From Nanobdellota archaeon (lineage in GTDB: Archaea > Nanobdellota > Nanobdellia > Woesearchaeales > GW2011-AR9), in assembly GCA_038044525.1 (NCBI GenBank), contig JBBSZV010000033.1:7131-71130 (forward strand): a DNA stretch of 64,000 nucleotides, given 5' to 3'. Under the pieces are notes generated by a model. That model worked only from the letters and a program-made list of their open reading frames with translations, did no database searches and was not told the DNA's origin. The position numbers and the translations under genes are program-made. Positions within the stretch are counted from its first letter, which is position 1, and each line of letters begins with the position of its first letter. Positions 3,698-43,956 of the stretch are shown here, one piece after another.

Positions 3698-4321
3698 TTG
3701 AGCGAGGCAAACAAAATGACTGAACAACAAGAAGAATTATTGCTCGATTCTAACGAGTATCTGAAATCTGGCATCCATATAGGAACCAAATTCAAGAACA
3801 AATACATGGCCAATTTCATCTATAAGACCAGGCCGGACGGATTAAGCGTCTTGAACCTGAAAGAGATTGACAAGAGGCTGGGCTTGGCAGCAAACCTGCT
3901 GGCTAAATATGAGCCGCAGGATATCTTGGTCGTCAGCAGAAGGGAAAACGGATGGAAAGGCCTGAAGAAGCTGCAGGAGCTTACCGGAATAAGGATCATC
4001 GTCGGCAGATATCCGCCAGGAATATTGACCAATACTAACCTAGCCACTTTCTGGGAGCCAAAAATAATCTTTGTCTGCGATCCGTGGACGGACAAGAATG
4101 CGGTGCAGGATGCGGCTAAGATCGGAATTCCGGTCATCGCTCTCTGCGACACCAACAATCAGGCTAATGATGTCGATCTGGTAGTTCCCTGCAACAATAA
4201 AGGGAAAAAATCAGTCGGATTGGTATTTTATGTCATCGCCCGTGAATTCATGCGCAAGAAAGGATTGCTGCGCGGCGATGAAGAAATGCCGGTCAAGATG
4301 GAAGATTTCATCGAGGAATAG
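3698..4321 (+). CDS. rps2: 30S ribosomal protein uS2, archaeal/eukaryotic SA type.
   Basis: Contains LLDSNEYLKSGIHIGTK, FIYKTRPDGLSVLNL, ILVVSRRENG, GRYPPGILTN and IPVIALCDTNN. It aligns along its full length with archaeal S2. Confidence 0.9.
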   Translation: MSEANKMTEQQEELLLDSNEYLKSGIHIGTKFKNKYMANFIYKTRPDGLSVLNLKEIDKRLGLAANLLAKYEPQDILVVSRRENGWKGLKKLQELTGIRIIVGRYPPGILTNTNLATFWEPKIIFVCDPWTDKNAVQDAAKIGIPVIALCDTNNQANDVDLVVPCNNKGKKSVGLVFYVIAREFMRKKGLLRGDEEMPVKMEDFIEE

Positions 4322-4348
4322 ATTTTTTAATTTATTTTTTTAATTATT

Positions 4349-4906
4349 ATGGCAGCTACCGCAAGTTCTTCTTGGAAAGAACTGGATGGATATGTTAGTA
4401 AGTTAATCCAGGTCTTTCCGAATTTGCAGATCTGGAAAGATATTGAGCGGAAACCGATAACTGTTTCTTCAATAGATCATTTGATCAGTGATGGCCTGAA
4501 CTTGATAGAAGATTCTACCATTACCGTTTTTACCGGCGGAATCGTTATTGAAGAGGAAACAAAAAAGATGGTCATCTTGTTAAAAGCAGGACTTGATTCC
4601 TACAACCGTGATGTAACTCTTTTTCATGAATTAGCTCATCTTCATCATCCGATTTACTTAAGCAGAAGAAGTAATGAATTTGACGGTTTTGTTTCCTATG
4701 CTGAGGAAACTGCAAGAGAAGCGATTACAGAATGGCTGGGAAGAAAAGCGAGAGCTGATCCGGAATTATTACGGCATGCGGTTCTTTCTTTCGGTTTGGA
4801 AGCGCAGGTTTATGATAAATCCAGTTACCAAGCTTTTCAGAAAATAATAAGGGGCCAGCAATGTTTCCCCTTCATGGAACAAGAATATCCCGTCTTGATG
4901 GATTAA
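4349..4906 (+). CDS. Hypothetical protein with an HExxH motif. Possibly an ImmA/IrrE (DUF955)-like zinc metallopeptidase.
   Basis: The motif LFHELAHLHH resembles the ImmA/IrrE HELGHLLLH. There is no other support. Confidence 0.3.
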   Translation: MAATASSSWKELDGYVSKLIQVFPNLQIWKDIERKPITVSSIDHLISDGLNLIEDSTITVFTGGIVIEEETKKMVILLKAGLDSYNRDVTLFHELAHLHHPIYLSRRSNEFDGFVSYAEETAREAITEWLGRKARADPELLRHAVLSFGLEAQVYDKSSYQAFQKIIRGQQCFPFMEQEYPVLMD

Positions 4907-7188: not shown

Positions 7189-7437
7189 GTGCAAGATTTG
7201 AAATTGGGTAATATAACCTTCAGTAAGAACGTTCGAGAAGACATATTAGAGCTATTTGGTAAAAGTTTAGACGAAGAAGGATTTATTGTAGAAAAAGACG
7301 ATACTTCTCAGCGGGTTCTTACTCCAAAAGGTGAAGAAATCCATATCGATGAATGGGCCGGCGTAGTTAAAGGTTCTGAAGCTTTTGTTAAGAATGACGC
7401 TCTTTCTTTAATTGAACTTGCAAAAAAATTAGAATGA
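7189..7437 (+). CDS. Small hypothetical protein (82 aa, GTG start). First gene of an AT-rich island.
   Basis: An ORF in a low-GC segment. Its stop overlaps the next start (ATGA). Confidence 0.35.
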   Translation: MQDLKLGNITFSKNVREDILELFGKSLDEEGFIVEKDDTSQRVLTPKGEEIHIDEWAGVVKGSEAFVKNDALSLIELAKKLE

Positions 7438-8252
7438 ATCTTATTCTTGATAAGTTGAAAACAATATTTCACGGTAAGTTTGATGATATTTTATCAAATA
7501 ATAACATCAAGATTTTCGATTTTTCTAAAAATACAACGAATATACTTGAAATTAAAGATGGCCAGAAACTTGATATTGATTTAGGTAAAGCCAATGCAGA
7601 AGAAAAAAAATTAGTAAAAGAAAGAATTATAGATTTAATGGTTCAAAGCGAAAATGGGGCATTTCTGTCTGCTGATTCCTTCCAAAAGACTAAAAAAATT
7701 AAGTCAAATCTTCCTACCGGAGAAGATGAGGAGCTATTAAAATTCTATAAAGATAAACTTAAACTTGAAATGTATAAAGCATTGGAAGCTTCTCTTGTCG
7801 TACGAAATGCTTTTAAAAAAGGTGAGGAAATAACTGATCTTAAAAAAGATATATCTAAACTTTACCCTACTTTTGGTAAAAATATTTGCAATTTAGTGAC
7901 TAGGGAATATTTTCATACTCACTTTAAAGATTTATACGATAGCATGATCGAAGATCAAGATTTTGATATTAATCTCTATCAAAGAAAAGTAGAAAAAATT
8001 GTTCAGTCTCTTCCTTATACAGTTTTCGTAACGAGATATAGGTCTTATGATGATCTAAGTGGTGAAGTGAGATTTAAACTTGAAAAATTAAATAAATATG
8101 GGGCCGGCAGATTATTACTCCACGGCTTAGGAAGGGAAAATGTCAGTGCTACTTTAAATCTCTTAGAAGAATACAAAGATGATAAAAGCATCACTATCCA
8201 AAAAGAATTAAATCCTGGAGGAACAATCATTACAGCAACTCTAATTTTCTGA
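7434..8252 (+). CDS. Hypothetical protein with a C-terminal Smr-like (small MutS-related) nuclease domain.
   Basis: The C-terminus reads ...GAGRLLLHGLGRENVSATLNLLEEY...SITIQKELNPGGTIITATLIF. This matches the Smr pattern LDLHGL...A...L...IItGkG...GG.G...v.L. The N-terminal 190 aa are unrecognised. Confidence 0.4.
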   Translation: MNLILDKLKTIFHGKFDDILSNNNIKIFDFSKNTTNILEIKDGQKLDIDLGKANAEEKKLVKERIIDLMVQSENGAFLSADSFQKTKKIKSNLPTGEDEELLKFYKDKLKLEMYKALEASLVVRNAFKKGEEITDLKKDISKLYPTFGKNICNLVTREYFHTHFKDLYDSMIEDQDFDINLYQRKVEKIVQSLPYTVFVTRYRSYDDLSGEVRFKLEKLNKYGAGRLLLHGLGRENVSATLNLLEEYKDDKSITIQKELNPGGTIITATLIF

Positions 8253-8291: not shown

Positions 8292-9791
8292 TTGAGCAAA
8301 AGAGGCATTATGGTCAAGTTTAAAGTAAAGGATATGGATATAGCTACAGGAGGAATCTTTGTAGCTATCCTCAATCAGAAAGATGCGCACAAGCTGGACC
8401 TGCATTCCGGCGATCGTATCTTAGTCAAACACAACAGCAAATCCATCACTTGCATTTTAGACATTTCTCAAAGCAATAAAGCGGTTCCTGAAGGAAAAGT
8501 GGGCTTATTTGAAGAAGTTTTAACCAAACTTCATATCAAGCAAGGCGCAGCAGTTGAAGTAAAACTCACTGAAAAGCCGGAATCAGTAAAACATATCCGC
8601 GATAAATTGTTCGGCAAGGAACTTAATTACACGGAATTGTATCACATCACTGATGACATCACTCACGATCGGTTGACCGACATCGAAAAAACTTACTTCG
8701 TGGCTGCATCATTCATCCATAAATTAAGTGTGCGTGAAATAGTATGGCTGACCAAAGCGATGGTGTTGACCGGGCGGCAATTAAAGTTTAAGGGAGTAAC
8801 TTTAGACAAGCACAGTATCGGCGGAGTGCCCGGCAATAGAACTACCATGGTGGTAATTCCTATAGTAGCTGCTGCCGGCTATACCATTCCCAAAACAAGT
8901 TCACGTGCCATCACTTCCCCGGCCGGGACAGCTGACACCATGGAATGTTTAGCAAAAGTAGAATTATCTGAATCCAAAATAAGGCAGATAGTGCGGAAAA
9001 CGGGAGCCTGCATAGTACACGGCGGCTCGATGAATTTAGCTCCTGCCGACGACAAAATAATCGATGTTGAACATCCTCTCTCAATCGATGCCGAAGGGCA
9101 GTTGCTGGCTTCAGTCATGGCCAAAAAACATTCGGTCGGCGCCAATCATGTGCTGATCGATATTCCCATGGGCAGAAGCACTAAAGCGAGAACTAGGAGC
9201 GAAGCAAAGCATCTAAAGAAGATGTTTGAGCTTATCGGAAGGAAGTTAGGCATAAATGTCCGGGTGATAATCACGGACGGCTCGCATCCAATAGGGAATG
9301 GAATAGGGCCGTTGTTAGAAGCTGAGGATGTCATGGCGGTATTACGCAATGATCCTTTAGCGCCGTCAGATCTGAAAGAGAAATCATTGATGATGGCCGG
9401 AATTCTGCTGGAGATGGCCCAGTGCTGCACGGTCGGCGAAGGAAGAAAGCTTGCTCAGGAGATGTTGGAAAGCGGGAAAGCATTAAAGAAAATGGACAAT
9501 ATTATTCTGGCGCAAGGGAAGCAGAAAATGCCGGCATTGGGAAAATACCGTTTCGCGGTTAAAAGCAGCAAATCTGGTAAAATAACTGAAATAGATAATG
9601 AAATTATCGCTAAAATAGCTAGGATAGCTGGGGCTCCAGATGATAAAGGAGCAGGGCTGTACCTGTCAAAGAAAATTAATGTTCACGTGCAGAAGGGGCA
9701 GTTGTTGTACACCATCTATGCAGAAAGCCAGTTCAAATTGGATCGGGCGAAGGAGTTTGCAGCTTCCAATAATGGTTATGCGGTGAAATAA
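8292..9791 (+). CDS. deoA: AMP phosphorylase (archaeal thymidine-phosphorylase-family enzyme with an N-terminal extension).
   Basis: About 500 aa. The N-terminal domain resembles archaeal AMPpase (KFKVKDMDIATGGIFVAILNQKDAHKLDLHSGDRI). The pyrimidine-nucleoside-phosphorylase core contains SIGGVPGNRTTMVV, TSSRAITSPAGTADTME and GGSMNLAPADD. The true start may be the internal M at 8310. Confidence 0.75.
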   Translation: MSKRGIMVKFKVKDMDIATGGIFVAILNQKDAHKLDLHSGDRILVKHNSKSITCILDISQSNKAVPEGKVGLFEEVLTKLHIKQGAAVEVKLTEKPESVKHIRDKLFGKELNYTELYHITDDITHDRLTDIEKTYFVAASFIHKLSVREIVWLTKAMVLTGRQLKFKGVTLDKHSIGGVPGNRTTMVVIPIVAAAGYTIPKTSSRAITSPAGTADTMECLAKVELSESKIRQIVRKTGACIVHGGSMNLAPADDKIIDVEHPLSIDAEGQLLASVMAKKHSVGANHVLIDIPMGRSTKARTRSEAKHLKKMFELIGRKLGINVRVIITDGSHPIGNGIGPLLEAEDVMAVLRNDPLAPSDLKEKSLMMAGILLEMAQCCTVGEGRKLAQEMLESGKALKKMDNIILAQGKQKMPALGKYRFAVKSSKSGKITEIDNEIIAKIARIAGAPDDKGAGLYLSKKINVHVQKGQLLYTIYAESQFKLDRAKEFAASNNGYAVK

Positions 9792-10267
9792 TGAAAAAAA
9801 AATCGTCAAGATACGATCAAGTCGATGTATTGGACGTTTTGAAAAATGAAATCGATGCCGTCGAAGAAACGCTTCGTAAAGTAGAAGAATTTTATAAAAA
9901 GGATATGCGAAAGCTGGACCGGCTTTCCGATAAAATTGCTGAAATCGGCGGCAGCTGGGGATTCATTTTCGGATTCTTTATTTTCCTGGCCATCTGGATA
10001 ATTATCAATACCATCTTCCTGATGGAACGCCCCATAGATCCTTATCCGTTCATTCTTTTGAACCTGTTTATGTCTATGCTGGCTTCCATCCAGGCGCCGG
10101 TAATACTCATGAGCACCAATCGGTCTGCAAGGAGGGATCAGGCCAGACTGGAAATCGATTTAGAGAAAGACTTGCGAGACTTGCATATCGATAGGAGTTC
10201 TCACGTCCTGTTATTAAATATGCATAAAGACATCATCTCCATCAAGAAAAAACTGGGCATGAGATGA
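9791..10267 (+). CDS. DUF1003 family membrane protein.
   Basis: Two TM helices. The DUF1003-like core reads ERPIDPYPFILLNLFMSMLASIQAPVILMSTNRSARRDQ. TAATG overlap with the upstream gene. Confidence 0.6.
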   Translation: MKKKSSRYDQVDVLDVLKNEIDAVEETLRKVEEFYKKDMRKLDRLSDKIAEIGGSWGFIFGFFIFLAIWIIINTIFLMERPIDPYPFILLNLFMSMLASIQAPVILMSTNRSARRDQARLEIDLEKDLRDLHIDRSSHVLLLNMHKDIISIKKKLGMR

Positions 10268-10274
10268 ATCAAAA

Positions 10275-10490
10275 TCCCCACAGCACAAGAAATACAATAT
10301 TGGTTGTATTTCTGTGCAGAAATGAGATATTTTTCTCATTTCTTGCAAGCTGTGGGGTATGAGATGTAACTACAGCTTTGCTATTTAGCGTGGGTATTTT
10401 GGTGCAAAAAGGGATAGATTTCCCTTTTGCACAGAAGGACTTTGTCCTTCTTGTGTTGCTTTCGTATCCCCACTGCAAGCAGTGGGGGTA
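10275..10490. other. Hairpin-dense structured intergenic element (candidate ncRNA or palindromic repeat cluster).
   Basis: Nested inverted repeats CCCCACAGC...GCTGTGGGG enclose two inner hairpins. A 12-bp hairpin follows (GTGCAAAAAGGGA/TCCCTTTTGCAC). Then comes a CCCCACTGCaagGCAGTGGGG hairpin. A T-run/GC-palindrome/T-run follows at 10524-10545. Confidence 0.4.
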
Positions 10491-10618
10491 TACTCATCAA
10501 CAATTAAGGAAGTTCTATCTGCTTTTTTCGCCGGCCGCCGGTTTTCCGACACAAGTTTAAATAGTTTAAATGATGCATTTAAATAAAAATGGAATATTTA
10601 GTCAACTAATCTACTTAA

Positions 10619-10897
10619 GTGATGGGGGTAAGAAAAATGGATCGGAAAGCAGCTATAAAAGAATACGGGAATTTAATCAACCAGGCTAGGGAGGCCAAAT
10701 ATAGATATAATGCTAAGGTTGAGCATAGGTTTGATCCTACTGAAAGAGACAAAGAACTAATAAGGGAATATCATAACCTACGTGCCCAAGCAGCAGAAGT
10801 AGCGCGTTTTGTATATCCAGATTATCGATGGGGTTCTCAGGAAGATTTAGAGAGCGTGGTAATATGTGATATGACCAATTACTTAAAGTGGTGGTAG
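10619..10897 (+). CDS. Hypothetical small protein.
   Basis: 92-aa ORF. The start is uncertain (an internal M lies at residue 7). Confidence 0.3.
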   Translation: MMGVRKMDRKAAIKEYGNLINQAREAKYRYNAKVEHRFDPTERDKELIREYHNLRAQAAEVARFVYPDYRWGSQEDLESVVICDMTNYLKWW

Positions 10898-10909: not shown

Positions 10910-11341
10910 TCACTTCAGTCCGGTGCTGCCGAATCCGCCCCGATTTTCCCGGTTAAATGAATCTACTTCTTCAAACTGCACCTGATCGTAATTCACCAAG
11001 ATCATCTGGGCGATGCGCGTTCCGCGTTCAATGATGACCTCTTTATCGGTAAAATTAAATGCCGCAAAATGATATTCATCGTCATCACCGCAGAAATCCG
11101 CGTCGCCTACTCCGATACTGTTAGCCGCAGTGATGCCTAATTTATGAGTAGAGCTTCTGGGCGCCAGCATCACCCAGGTTCCCGGAGGGATCTCTAAAAC
11201 CACGTTCAGCGGGATGTAAGTAATTTCTTTTGGTTTTATGGCGACGGTCGTTCTGGCATAGACATCGAACCCGGCAGCGCTTTTAGTTTTGTACTGGGGT
11301 AAGGGCAGAGTTCTGTCAAGACGTTTGATGCGGATTTTCAT
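10910..11341 (-). CDS. dut: dUTP diphosphatase / dCTP deaminase-family protein.
   Basis: Contains AAGFDVYA, LAPRSSTHKLGI and IGVGDADFCGDDDEY. The C-terminus is Gly-rich (GGFGSTG), typical of the dUTPase fold. Confidence 0.65.
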   Translation of the reverse strand: MKIRIKRLDRTLPLPQYKTKSAAGFDVYARTTVAIKPKEITYIPLNVVLEIPPGTWVMLAPRSSTHKLGITAANSIGVGDADFCGDDDEYHFAAFNFTDKEVIIERGTRIAQMILVNYDQVQFEEVDSFNRENRGGFGSTGLK

Positions 11342-41526: not shown

Positions 41527-42261
41527 TTAATTAAGCTCAGCATCAATGACCTGCTGGAAAACACTAAACGGTTGCGCTCCACTGATGAGTTTTCCATTGA
41601 TGATGAACCCCGGCGTTCCTGAAATTCCTGCTGCACTTCCATCAGCTAAATCTTTTCGAATTTCCTGCTTTTGCGCTGGATCGCTCAAACAGGCTTCCCA
41701 TTTAGCAACGTTTAAACTAAGTTCCTGAGCCCAACGTTTGTAATCAGCACTGCTCTTTCCTCCTGCTCCTCCATTGCTGAAGATTATGTCATGGTACTCA
41801 AAGTATTTTTCCTGTTCCCCAGCACAATTGGCGGCAATCGCAGCAGGTTCAGCCTGTTGATGGAAGCCTAATGGAAAGTCACGATAGACAAACTTCACTT
41901 TCCCAGTTTTAATGTACATACTCTCAATTTGTGATAATGTTTGCTGATAAAATCGTTCACAGAACGGACATTCATAATCACTAAATTCAATTATGGTGAC
42001 TGGTGCATCTTTTTCTCCCAAGAAAGGATCATCATCAGCAAGTGCTTTCATATCGGTTATTCCTGCACTTGGCGCTTGTGGTGCTCCTCCTAATGTGGGC
42101 GCCCCAACTGCACCCGTAGGAGAATTATTGCCTCTAAAGGCCATGAATGCTAATACTACAATTAAAACTATTGTAGTGACTTTCCAGAACATTGATTTAT
42201 TGATAGTTATACTATCACTCTTTTTTGCTTTTAGTTCTTGTTGCTCTTCGATTTTAACCAC
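41527..42261 (-). CDS. DsbA-family thioredoxin-fold thiol:disulfide oxidoreductase, membrane-anchored and exported.
   Basis: The TM anchor reads FWKVTTIVLIVVLAFMAF. The CxxC motif reads FSDYECPFCERF. The DsbA-like core reads VKFVYRDFPL...GTPGFIINGK. Confidence 0.65.
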   Translation of the reverse strand: MVKIEEQQELKAKKSDSITINKSMFWKVTTIVLIVVLAFMAFRGNNSPTGAVGAPTLGGAPQAPSAGITDMKALADDDPFLGEKDAPVTIIEFSDYECPFCERFYQQTLSQIESMYIKTGKVKFVYRDFPLGFHQQAEPAAIAANCAGEQEKYFEYHDIIFSNGGAGGKSSADYKRWAQELSLNVAKWEACLSDPAQKQEIRKDLADGSAAGISGTPGFIINGKLISGAQPFSVFQQVIDAELN

Positions 42262-42300
42262 CTCTGGCGTTTTTTAAATTGCTATTCTCAAACAATTCTG

Positions 42301-42321
42301 TTGTTTCATAGGATGAAACAA
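42301..42321. promoter_or_regulatory. Palindrome TTGTTTCATaggATGAAACAA in a divergent promoter region. Candidate operator.
   Basis: A 9-bp perfect inverted repeat with a 3-nt spacer lies between divergent starts at 42261 and 42417. A TTGTTTC half-site is repeated at about 42364. Confidence 0.4.
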
Positions 42322-42416
42322 TATATAAATGGTTTTGAAACGTCCAAAATTAAGCCGAATTGTTGTTTCGTCAGGTGTAGCAATATTTAAATAAGGGTTG
42401 ATTCTGCTGACTATTT

Positions 42417-42917
42417 ATGGATGGACGCTCAGTTAAGTTATATAAATACATCAGCCTTGGATTTTCAGCAATAATCATCGGTCTTGCGATTCTTATCTAT
42501 GGGGTAATGTATATCCATCGTAATACAACCAGTAAAAATTCATTAATATTCTGGACAGTTGAAAATCATTTACCTATAACTATCAGTATGATCATACTTT
42601 CTGGATTTATGGGTTATATTTTATCAACCGTAACTTACAAACAAGTTACTAAGACTAAGAAAGAATCTCACAAATTATTAGAGATATTATTTCTCTTCCT
42701 AAACAGAGATGAGAAAGAGATTATTAATTCTCTTGTTCAGAATAATGGCATGATAGGACAAGCAGAGATTTCCCGTTTGCCCGGAATGGACCGAGTTAAA
42801 GCGTATCGCTCCCTCCAAAAGATGCAGGAAAAAAAACTGATAGATATAACTGCGCATGGAAAAATAAGAAAAGTATCGCTTAAAGACAACATATTAAACC
42901 TGCTTACTAGAGAATAA
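42417..42917 (+). CDS. Membrane-tethered winged-helix transcriptional regulator (two N-terminal TM helices plus a C-terminal wHTH).
   Basis: TM helices SLGFSAIIIGLAILIYGVMYI and ITISMIILSGFMGYILS. The C-terminus EKEIINSLVQNNGMIGQAEISRLPGMDRVKAYRSLQKMQEKKLI is MarR/TrmB-like. Confidence 0.45.
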   Translation: MDGRSVKLYKYISLGFSAIIIGLAILIYGVMYIHRNTTSKNSLIFWTVENHLPITISMIILSGFMGYILSTVTYKQVTKTKKESHKLLEILFLFLNRDEKEIINSLVQNNGMIGQAEISRLPGMDRVKAYRSLQKMQEKKLIDITAHGKIRKVSLKDNILNLLTRE

Positions 42918-42924
42918 ATTAGTC

Positions 42925-42933
42925 TGCCGTAAC
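42925..42933. repeat. Left copy of the 9-bp target-site duplication TGCCGTAAC.
   Basis: The identical 9-mer abuts both IS ends (42925-42933 and 43957-43965). Confidence 0.6.
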
Positions 42934-43956
42934 GGCTAATATGAAACCCTTGTAATTCTGATGAATATCAGAATTACTTGTTTTCCCGCTTCTAACATTC
43001 TGTCAATGTTATAGGCAACGATTCTACACATTGCTTCCACTTTTTGGTTCTTTACATCCTTTGATTTGATACTAAACCCAAACTTTCTTTTGAGAATACT
43101 GAAAGTAGTCTCAACCTTGTTCCTTTGAAGGTATTCTCCATAATCAAACACATCAAACGTCTCTTTTCTGTATCTTCCTTTTCTTCTATGCTTTGGCACA
43201 TCTAATCTTTTCTGGAGAATAAACGGGTATGCTCCCAGCTCTTCAAATACTATTTTGAAGAGCTTCTCGGCATCATATCCCCTATCTCCGTAAAAAGCTT
43301 CTGGTCGGTAATTTTTTGCCAATCTCCGGGTCATTGTATATGCATCAATCAGGTCGTGTCTTGCTTTTTTTCTAAGCTTAAATTGTAGGATAAAATAATG
43401 CTTTATATCGACGATAATACTTAGCTTCAAGAACGGACGTTTTTTGTATGCTTTTCCGATTCTTTTGCAGTAATGTGGACTGGCATTATCCAAACTAATG
43501 CCCGTTCCATCGATAGCAACCTTTTCAGGTTGCTCAATAAGTTTGCTAAACGCAGCCATAAGCTTATCGAAGATAGCAGTAGGAAGTCTCTTCGCAAACT
43601 TGATAAGAGTTGTATATTCAGGGAGCTTATTTAGCCCTAAATATGCCCTAAGCGTGATATTATCGCTTAAATCTTCAAGCAATTCCTTATAAGTAAACTT
43701 ACGGAATTGCTTGTATACCAGCAAAAAGAGATGCTGGTATTGGGTATAAAGCTTATTTGAGAACTTGGAGTTGTGAAGCATAAGCTCCGCTTCTCTGAAC
43801 AATTCATAGCAAAAATCAGCAAGTTTTTTAAATTTAGAAGTTATTATTTCCATTCGTAGTTCACCTCGTCGATAAAAGCGTCTTAAGACAACACTTTATC
43901 GACGTGAACTACTTTATATAACTTCTGAATCAAAGCCGGAGGGTTTCATATTAGCC
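42934..43956 (-). mobile_element. Complete IS element of about 1.0 kb (IS5/IS4-superfamily-like) with 16-bp perfect TIRs (GGCTAATATGAAACCC) and a 9-bp TSD.
   Basis: The TIRs are at 42934-42949 and 43941-43956 (reverse complement). A single DDE transposase ORF lies inside. The flanking 9-bp direct repeats indicate a recent insertion. Confidence 0.75.
42936..43853 (-). CDS. DDE transposase (IS5/IS4-like).
   Basis: Motifs AIDGTG, GDRGYD and NKVETTFSILKRKFG match the D-D-E / R-x3-E-x3-K signatures of the IS4/IS5 superfamily. 305 aa. Confidence 0.7.
   Translation of the reverse strand: MEIITSKFKKLADFCYELFREAELMLHNSKFSNKLYTQYQHLFLLVYKQFRKFTYKELLEDLSDNITLRAYLGLNKLPEYTTLIKFAKRLPTAIFDKLMAAFSKLIEQPEKVAIDGTGISLDNASPHYCKRIGKAYKKRPFLKLSIIVDIKHYFILQFKLRKKARHDLIDAYTMTRRLAKNYRPEAFYGDRGYDAEKLFKIVFEELGAYPFILQKRLDVPKHRRKGRYRKETFDVFDYGEYLQRNKVETTFSILKRKFGFSIKSKDVKNQKVEAMCRIVAYNIDRMLEAGKQVILIFIRITRVSY

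Follow-up and report, generated by a model that had tools for sequence, protein, structure and literature searches.

A probable PATE-type, non-autonomous IS200/IS605-family element between the DUF1003 and dUTPase genes of a groundwater DPANN archaeon

The DNA analysed here (hereafter the window, meaning the whole stretch of 64,000 nucleotides) belongs to a DPANN archaeon from the Hainich groundwater metagenomes; its proteins carry the NCBI label Nanoarchaeota, and its genes include TYW3, Trm61/GCD14, an AMP-phosphorylase-like protein and CARDB. The terminal genes of the window were used to extend the genome and recovered short contigs only. The locus under study lies between a DUF1003 gene and the convergent dUTPase gene dut, and is composed as follows:

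9791-10267: DUF1003 gene, its stop codon abutting the element
10267-10504, minus strand (the tnpA sense of the autonomous relatives): window copy of the element, 238 bp
10267-10275, minus strand: RE tail, ATTTTGATT, 9 nt from the foot of the RE hairpin to the element end
10276-10357, minus strand: RE-side terminal palindrome, CCCCACAGC...GCTGTGGGG, its loop interrupted here
10276-10284 and 10349-10357: the arms CCCCACAGC and GCTGTGGGG of that palindrome, an outer perfect stem of 9 bp
10285-10346: nested block H1+H2, 62 nt, two tandem 31-nt hairpins, present only in the window copy
10285-10315 (H1) and 10316-10346 (H2): inner hairpins, each with 10 perfect bp (12 with one bulged A) and a hexaloop
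10402-10451: internal hairpins H3 and H4, conserved in 4/4 copies
10402-10432: H3, 12 bp with one bulged A
10433-10451: H4, AGAAGGAC-TTT-GTCCTTCT
10465-10490, minus strand: LE-side terminal palindrome, TAT-CCCCACTGC-AA-GCAGTGGGG-(G)TA
10468-10487: core of the LE-side palindrome, CCCCACTGC-AA-GCAGTGGGG, the second copy of the motif
10489-10504, minus strand: LE linker, 16 nt, ATTGTTGATGAGTATA in tnpA sense
10505-10636, plus strand: non-element segment
10523-10545: T6/GC palindrome/T4, outside the element
10556-10584: TATA-box-like motifs, three TTTAAAT(A/G)
10625-10630: Shine-Dalgarno-like GGGGGT
10637-10897, plus strand: orphan ORF of 86 aa, within the 642-bp lineage-specific gap and outside the element
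10910-11341, minus strand: dut, convergent, after the orphan ORF

All inverted repeats listed in an earlier note on this DNA were recovered, together with the hairpin H4, which is absent from that note. A TAT was said there to follow both GTGGGG arms, and this holds for the first arm, while the second is followed by G and then TAT. The motif CCCCACWGC has four matches in the 64 kb against 0.52 expected, all of them inside the element, and 6 of the 23 perfect hairpins of the window (stem of at least 8 bp) fall within these 300 bp, compared to 7.4 ± 2.8 such hairpins expected per 64 kb of shuffled sequence; the hairpin density is thus far beyond chance. Three short ORFs overlap the region, at 10264-10362 (plus), 10378-10560 (plus) and 10269-10478 (minus), and such ORFs across the palindromes of a mobile element are most likely spurious. 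No other copy of the element was found within the 64-kb window. A second cluster of perfect hairpins is located at 42100-43900, where two 11-bp stems lie inside the gene of an IS5-type DDE transposase (DDE_Tnp_1 and DUF772; 42936-43853, minus strand) in a stretch of low GC content (0.35-0.37). The segment 7001-8252, with a GC content of 0.31 and two ORFs (7189-7437 and 7434-8252) without a family match, may be another acquired island.

On the minus strand of the window both terminal palindromes read CCCCAC(A/T)GC-TT-GC(T/A)GTGGGG in direct orientation, with their feet 9 nt and 16 nt from the ends shared by 4/4 copies, and approximately 110 nt of hairpin-rich filler without any gene lie between them. 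The window copy consists of a canonical body of 176 bp and the nested block of 62 nt. The unit of about 280 bp proposed in the earlier note combines two separate things: the element ends at 10504, and the T-run and GC palindrome at 10523-10545 therefore fall outside it. At the other end, A10267 of the element is also the third base of the DUF1003 stop codon TGA (10265-10267). If the element were removed, the DUF1003 frame would extend by about 27 codons, and the C-terminal tail of the window DUF1003 is unlike the tails of its relatives.

Comparison with the closest relatives (L011, L012, L013 and L019, with DUF1003 proteins 79-84% identical) revealed a DUF1003-dut gap of just 8-25 bp, and therefore the whole 642 bp found here are lineage-specific. 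Neither the element nor any conserved cis-element or ncRNA was present at the orthologous site in these four loci. The population that carries the window locus is represented by 10 contigs and one long-read contig, which are identical apart from sequencing errors, and a covariation test from these contigs is consequently impossible.

A metagenome scan with an element-specific 22-mer from the H3/H4 junction yielded further copies: three Hainich contigs (L144, L145 and L146) that lack the window locus. They resemble the window only at about 10345-10508, with 96-99% identity, and have nothing but the element segment in common with one another in pairwise comparisons. The four copies share their ends, AATCAAAAT-CCCCACAGC... 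and ...GGGGTATACTCATCAACAAT, and their flanks are unrelated. In the three other copies the canonical element measures 175 bp, and the copies are 95-100% identical: two of them are 100% identical to each other, the window body is 98.9% identical to that pair, and without its 62-nt block it is 95-99% identical to the three. Terminal inverted repeats were not detected (the first 20 nt match the reverse complement of the last 20 at 7/20 positions), and, judged from the flanks, a target duplication was likewise absent (direct repeat of 0 nt in 4/4 copies). No empty site was found for any copy, and the sole comparable site (L147) holds a different element. The LE-side flanks CCTTA, GCTTA, TTTTG and TTTTC have only TT in common and point to no clear tetra- or pentanucleotide of the kind 3' of which IS200/IS605 elements insert, four copies being too few to define a target motif.

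The surroundings of the three copies differ. The L145 copy lies between convergent genes and is flanked by an NOG1 GTPase and ribosomal protein L10e; the L144 copy is flanked by SMC_prok_A and an intein-containing GyrB; and the L146 copy occupies a divergent promoter region beside a sigma-like gene, the nearest homolog of which is labelled Nanoarchaeota by NCBI. These flanking genes would fit DPANN archaea, the link to the genome of the window consisting of Nanoarchaeota or archaeal labels and similar GC content only. The GyrB of L144 (2812-4794, minus strand) is a fragment with an intein beside the element copy on a DPANN-like contig. The sigma-like gene is of the ECF sigma-70 type (TIGR02937, 64 bits) and is present at 4237-4701 (minus strand) of L146 and 1978-2523 of L147, on contigs labelled Nanoarchaeota by NCBI, where its neighbours are several orphans and a gene with a Bro-N domain. 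It is odd to meet a sigma factor of bacterial type in a DPANN bin, and a mobile island or an error of binning could account for it. The gene had suggested a cross-domain copy in L146, but its nearest homolog carries the Nanoarchaeota label and the adjacent locus L147 agrees with a DPANN MAG, so that this reading is not supported.

The junction ...CCTTTTTA and GAAAAACCACTC... encloses the 175-bp element in L146 (4702-5016), and the identical junction in another Hainich population, L147 (1607-1977), encloses a different hairpin-rich element of 231 bp with similar ATACCCCAC motifs. This shared junction fits precise excision and reuse of the target by related elements, without proving it. Five short-read contigs start inside the 231-bp element of L147. 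Independent assemblies also end inside such elements, namely L006, L007 and L008 at the window locus, L039 and L044, and L148-L152; the last bases of L007 show the G variant that the other copies typically have, which would be expected if the repeat tangles the assembly graph.

The window copy is further distinguished by its RE side: the hairpin CCCCACAGC-AA-GCTGTGGGG, plain and 20 nt long in the other copies, has its loop enlarged by 62 nucleotides here. This block is absent from L144, L145 and L146, and the place of its insertion, within TTGC, can be fixed only to within a few bases. Local alignment of the block with the H3 segment of the element gave a score of 17, compared to 8.9 ± 1.4 for shuffled sequences (0/500 reached 17), and this significant similarity indicates that the block is a diverged partial copy of PATE-internal sequence. 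In the predicted fold the 9-bp stem can still close beneath the block, as a three-way junction. The block may have crippled or immobilised the window copy.

The distribution of the core hairpin was determined from exact matches to the 20-mer CCCCACWGCAAGCWGTGGGG, one genome being scanned for each species. It occurs at no fewer than 118 loci of archaea and bacteria, compared to about 2-4 expected by chance (our own estimate). The matches listed include Woese-, Pace-, Nano- and Micrarchaeota, Methanotrichaceae, Methanosarcinaceae and Thermoplasmata, as well as Dehalococcoidia, Anaerolineae, Ignavibacteria, Zixibacteria, Patescibacteria and others, and in many of them TAT or CAT flanks the hairpin on both sides. 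Within single genomes, the matches form multi-copy elements that have sequence in common to one side and end 15-20 nt past the hairpin: among the matches listed, a Pacearchaeota genome has four copies, a Methanotrichaceae genome three, an Anaerolineae genome nine, and a Hainich Nanoarchaeota MAG two, both at contig ends; many other genomes in the same set have a solitary copy. About 21 of the matches listed, from Rheinheimera, Alkalimonas, Streptomyces and Cupriavidus, have no relation to transposons and resemble terminator hairpins, and the 20-mer alone is thus not diagnostic. In Rheinheimera and Alkalimonas it is an orthologous terminator-like hairpin with a CUUG loop and a T8 tail on the other strand (L030, L049, L050, L052, L054, L063, L065, L079, L091, L092, L097, L098, L103, L118, L121, L122 and L126). 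In these two genera a very stable hairpin has probably been put to convergent use. In seven Dehalococcoidia loci (L028, L059, L074, L080, L108, L114 and L127) and in the viral contig L138, conserved sequence of about 70 nucleotides (cattacgggaaagggagccacccc...ggccgctttc) comes after the hairpin and forms a different conserved module.

Inspection of the genes beside the hairpin revealed its association with a transposase. In Methanotrichaceae (three identical copies) and Anaerolineales (L077 and L120) the hairpin is followed, 34-59 nt downstream, by a Y1_Tnp gene of 143-150 aa (PF01797, E 2e-33 to 5e-42), and tnpA fragments flank it in L066 and L071. Read in tnpA sense, these autonomous IS consist of a flank, a linker of 15-16 nt, the LE hairpin CCCCACAGC-TT-GCTGTGGGG and tnpA, and after the tnpA stop codon follow the RE hairpin CCCCGCAGC-TT-GCTGCG(c)GGG, about 10-20 nt with tails of the form ATYATYTACT, and the other flank; the LE and RE hairpins have the same strand and the same orientation. 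The archaeal and bacterial TnpA are 45% identical, though the LE 20-mer is identical. The window element and the tnpA-carrying copies share nothing beyond the hairpin core of 20-26 nt, and tnpA was detected neither in a six-frame translation of the 64-kb window, searched with an HMM built from three TnpA sequences, nor in the Hainich loci examined.

We consider it highly likely that window 10267-10504 is a non-autonomous IS200/IS605-family element of the PATE kind that carries no gene. As such, it is a new example of an already known kind of element, in a DPANN archaeon, and ordinary selfish DNA. According to the literature, IS200/IS605 is the most widespread IS family in archaea (PMC13343696), and PATEs, which were defined in Haloquadratum walsbyi (PMC3119063) and have also been seen in Geobacillus stearothermophilus, are mobilised in trans by TnpA (PMC10055086). 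Like the window element, PATEs have no terminal inverted repeats, palindromes near both termini and no target duplication, are too short for a transposase and are multi-copy (PMC3119063, PMC10055086). PATEs also share their ends with IS200/IS605-type transposons (PMC3119063, PMC10055086); for the window element the corresponding link would be the identity of the 20-mer with the LE hairpin of tnpA-carrying IS copies in Methanotrichaceae and Anaerolineales. The differences concern the host, here a groundwater DPANN archaeon, the nested 62-nt double hairpin in one terminal palindrome of the window copy, and the autonomous partner, since the PATEs of Haloquadratum go with IS1341-type tnpB elements, whereas the autonomous relatives found here carry tnpA only (IS200 type).

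The likeness to the IS200 group extends to the placement of the hairpins, which are subterminal, direct and on one strand, about 16 nt inside LE and about 9 nt inside RE, and to the position of the identical LE 20-mer next to Y1_Tnp genes; the window element differs from that group in its lack of tnpA and of common sequence past the core. The hairpins of IS608 lie about 19 and about 10 nt from its ends, and in both IS608 and ISDra2 the two end hairpins are on the same strand in the same orientation. With MITEs, which are derivatives of DDE elements, the window element shares its small size, the absence of coding sequence, multiple copies, intergenic position and, presumably, mobilisation in trans, but it lacks both the terminal inverted repeats of MITEs and the target duplications that usually accompany them. 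Of the "REP/MITE-like palindromic repeats" named in the earlier note, the multi-copy, mobile palindrome repeat is borne out, but in the absence of terminal inverted repeats and target duplication, and with its terminal palindromes direct, the element is not a REP or MITE in the strict sense.

Three other candidates were set aside. Contrary to a CRISPR repeat, the matches number only one or two at each locus and form no arrays; a replication origin, considered for a likeness to ORB-like G-strings, was abandoned when the mobile nature of the repeat emerged; and an integron attC site, suggested by the taxon range and the small orphan ORF, does not agree with two separate palindromes and the Y1 transposase link, nor did an integrase turn up. 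Phage and plasmid collections searched by BLAST gave no match to the region.

Single-strand transposition by TnpA is the established mechanism of IS608 and ISDra2. By analogy with these elements, TnpA supplied in trans would bind the folded hairpins of single-stranded DNA during replication, the palindromes being what a Y1 (HUH) TnpA would recognise on such DNA, and would cut both ends and free a single-stranded circle, which would be pasted beside a short target motif without duplication of the target. We infer peel-and-paste transposition of this kind, in trans by TnpA, for the window element (PMC10055086). The element would have inserted directly against the DUF1003 stop codon, and the RE-side palindrome of the window copy would later have taken up the 62-nt double hairpin into its loop. 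The density of hairpins would then be a DNA-level property of a selfish element, so that termination, insulation or any other influence on transcription would be a by-product.

The earlier note had also suggested a structured ncRNA, which could take the form of an omega RNA scaffold carried on a PATE for a TnpB encoded elsewhere, or of a regulator in the 3'-UTR of the DUF1003 operon. The predicted structure is indeed very strong (RNA fold z-scores of -10.3 on the plus and -8.7 on the minus strand), the RNA-parameter folding energy is lower on the plus strand (-121 vs -106 kcal/mol), and PATEs are often reported to encode omega RNAs (PMC10055086). We nevertheless judge such a gene very unlikely: the stems are perfect Watson-Crick palindromes with near-equal single-stranded DNA energies on both strands (-58.9 and -61.6 kcal/mol), and the unit moves as DNA with sharp ends at unrelated loci and is absent at the orthologous site, the homologous intergenic regions of the relatives having no counterpart of it. 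Searched at gathering thresholds, the 64 kb contain 0 matches to Rfam 15; a permissive search of 10150-10700, with E up to 10, picked up nothing except noise from eukaryotic miRNA and snoRNA families. Against an omega RNA in particular, the autonomous relatives found carry tnpA only, the scanned ORFs of the window include no TnpB, and the genes inspected by eye beside the hairpin at other loci do not resemble one. A REP or REPIN repeat kept by a domesticated single-copy RAYT, in place of a PATE moved by an IS200 TnpA, would likewise bring together short, GC-rich, intergenic palindromes and relatives of Y1 HUH transposases, by which REPs are recognised (PMC2817692), and the core hairpin of just 20 nt is solitary in many genomes among the matches listed. 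In REPINs, however, the palindromes form inverted pairs, and a RAYT is a single-copy gene with inverted REPs on its two sides, whereas the two palindromes of the window are direct and form the ends of a repeated unit of 175 bp with defined ends, not of a palindrome of 20-40 nt. Elsewhere, too, a second perfect hairpin with the same apex within 300 nt pointed the same way in 19 of the 101 non-terminator matches listed and the opposite way in 2 (19/21 direct), and the associated Y1 genes are multi-copy, bracketed by LE and RE hairpins of the same orientation and move with them, as in the three identical IS copies of one Methanotrichaceae genome. We therefore regard the REP or REPIN reading as extremely improbable.

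Irrespective of its origin, the window copy could now be retained because it serves the archaeon as a terminator or multi-hairpin barrier separating two convergent units, DUF1003 and orphan-ORF/dut, in agreement with its position directly after a stop codon, the similar position of the L145 copy between convergent genes, the nested 62-nt block that may have immobilised it, and a sequence invariant over 11 population contigs. This invariance is uninformative, because the population contigs are near-clonal throughout; the L146 copy lies in a divergent promoter region, the relatives manage with 8-25 bp between the same genes, and the obvious oligo-T tract (10523-10528) is outside the element. Archaeal termination relies on oligo-T tracts. 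A role for the host thus appears unlikely. It is also conceivable, though we hold it to be quite unlikely, that such elements are mobilised by the transposase of another genome, of a host cell or a co-resident mobile element, and move between domains in the aquifer community. This idea starts from the identity of the hairpin and its TAT flanks across DPANN archaea, methanogens and several bacterial phyla, in which the linked transposases are 45% identical, and from near-identical 175-bp copies in a reduced DPANN genome with no tnpA visible there; if true, DPANN genomes would be passive reservoirs of trans-mobilised elements.

The remainder of the gap is not explained by the PATE-type repeat. 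The segment 10505-10636 has no similarity to any locus examined, and its T6 run may be an archaeal oligo-T terminator of the upstream operon. The orphan ORF has no homologs beyond its own population, either in 5.8 billion clusters or in an exhaustive HMMER search against 1.84 billion representatives; it has no Pfam or PHROG match and is absent from the relatives. It had been considered as a clue, whether as a toxin, a DNA-binding partner or a mobile-element gene, and was set aside, as it has no family match and no homologs and lies outside the element. The T-run with its GC palindrome, the TATA-like boxes and the orphan ORF are a second lineage-specific addition.

With the identification of a probable PATE, a candidate novel structured RNA is struck off and replaced by a clear annotation. 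Such elements have practical consequences, as gene callers place spurious ORFs on them and assemblers break contigs there, and because they have no terminal inverted repeats they are missed by TIR-based MITE finders. The probe TAT-CCCCAC(A/T)GC-AA-GC(T/A)GTGGGG-TAT, of 20-26 nt, marks a subgroup of these elements in both prokaryotic domains and finds their ends. The nested block, and the two elements at one site in two populations, provide small cases for element decay and target reuse. In biological terms, these results suggest that even very small DPANN genomes carry active-looking derivatives of the IS200/IS605 family.
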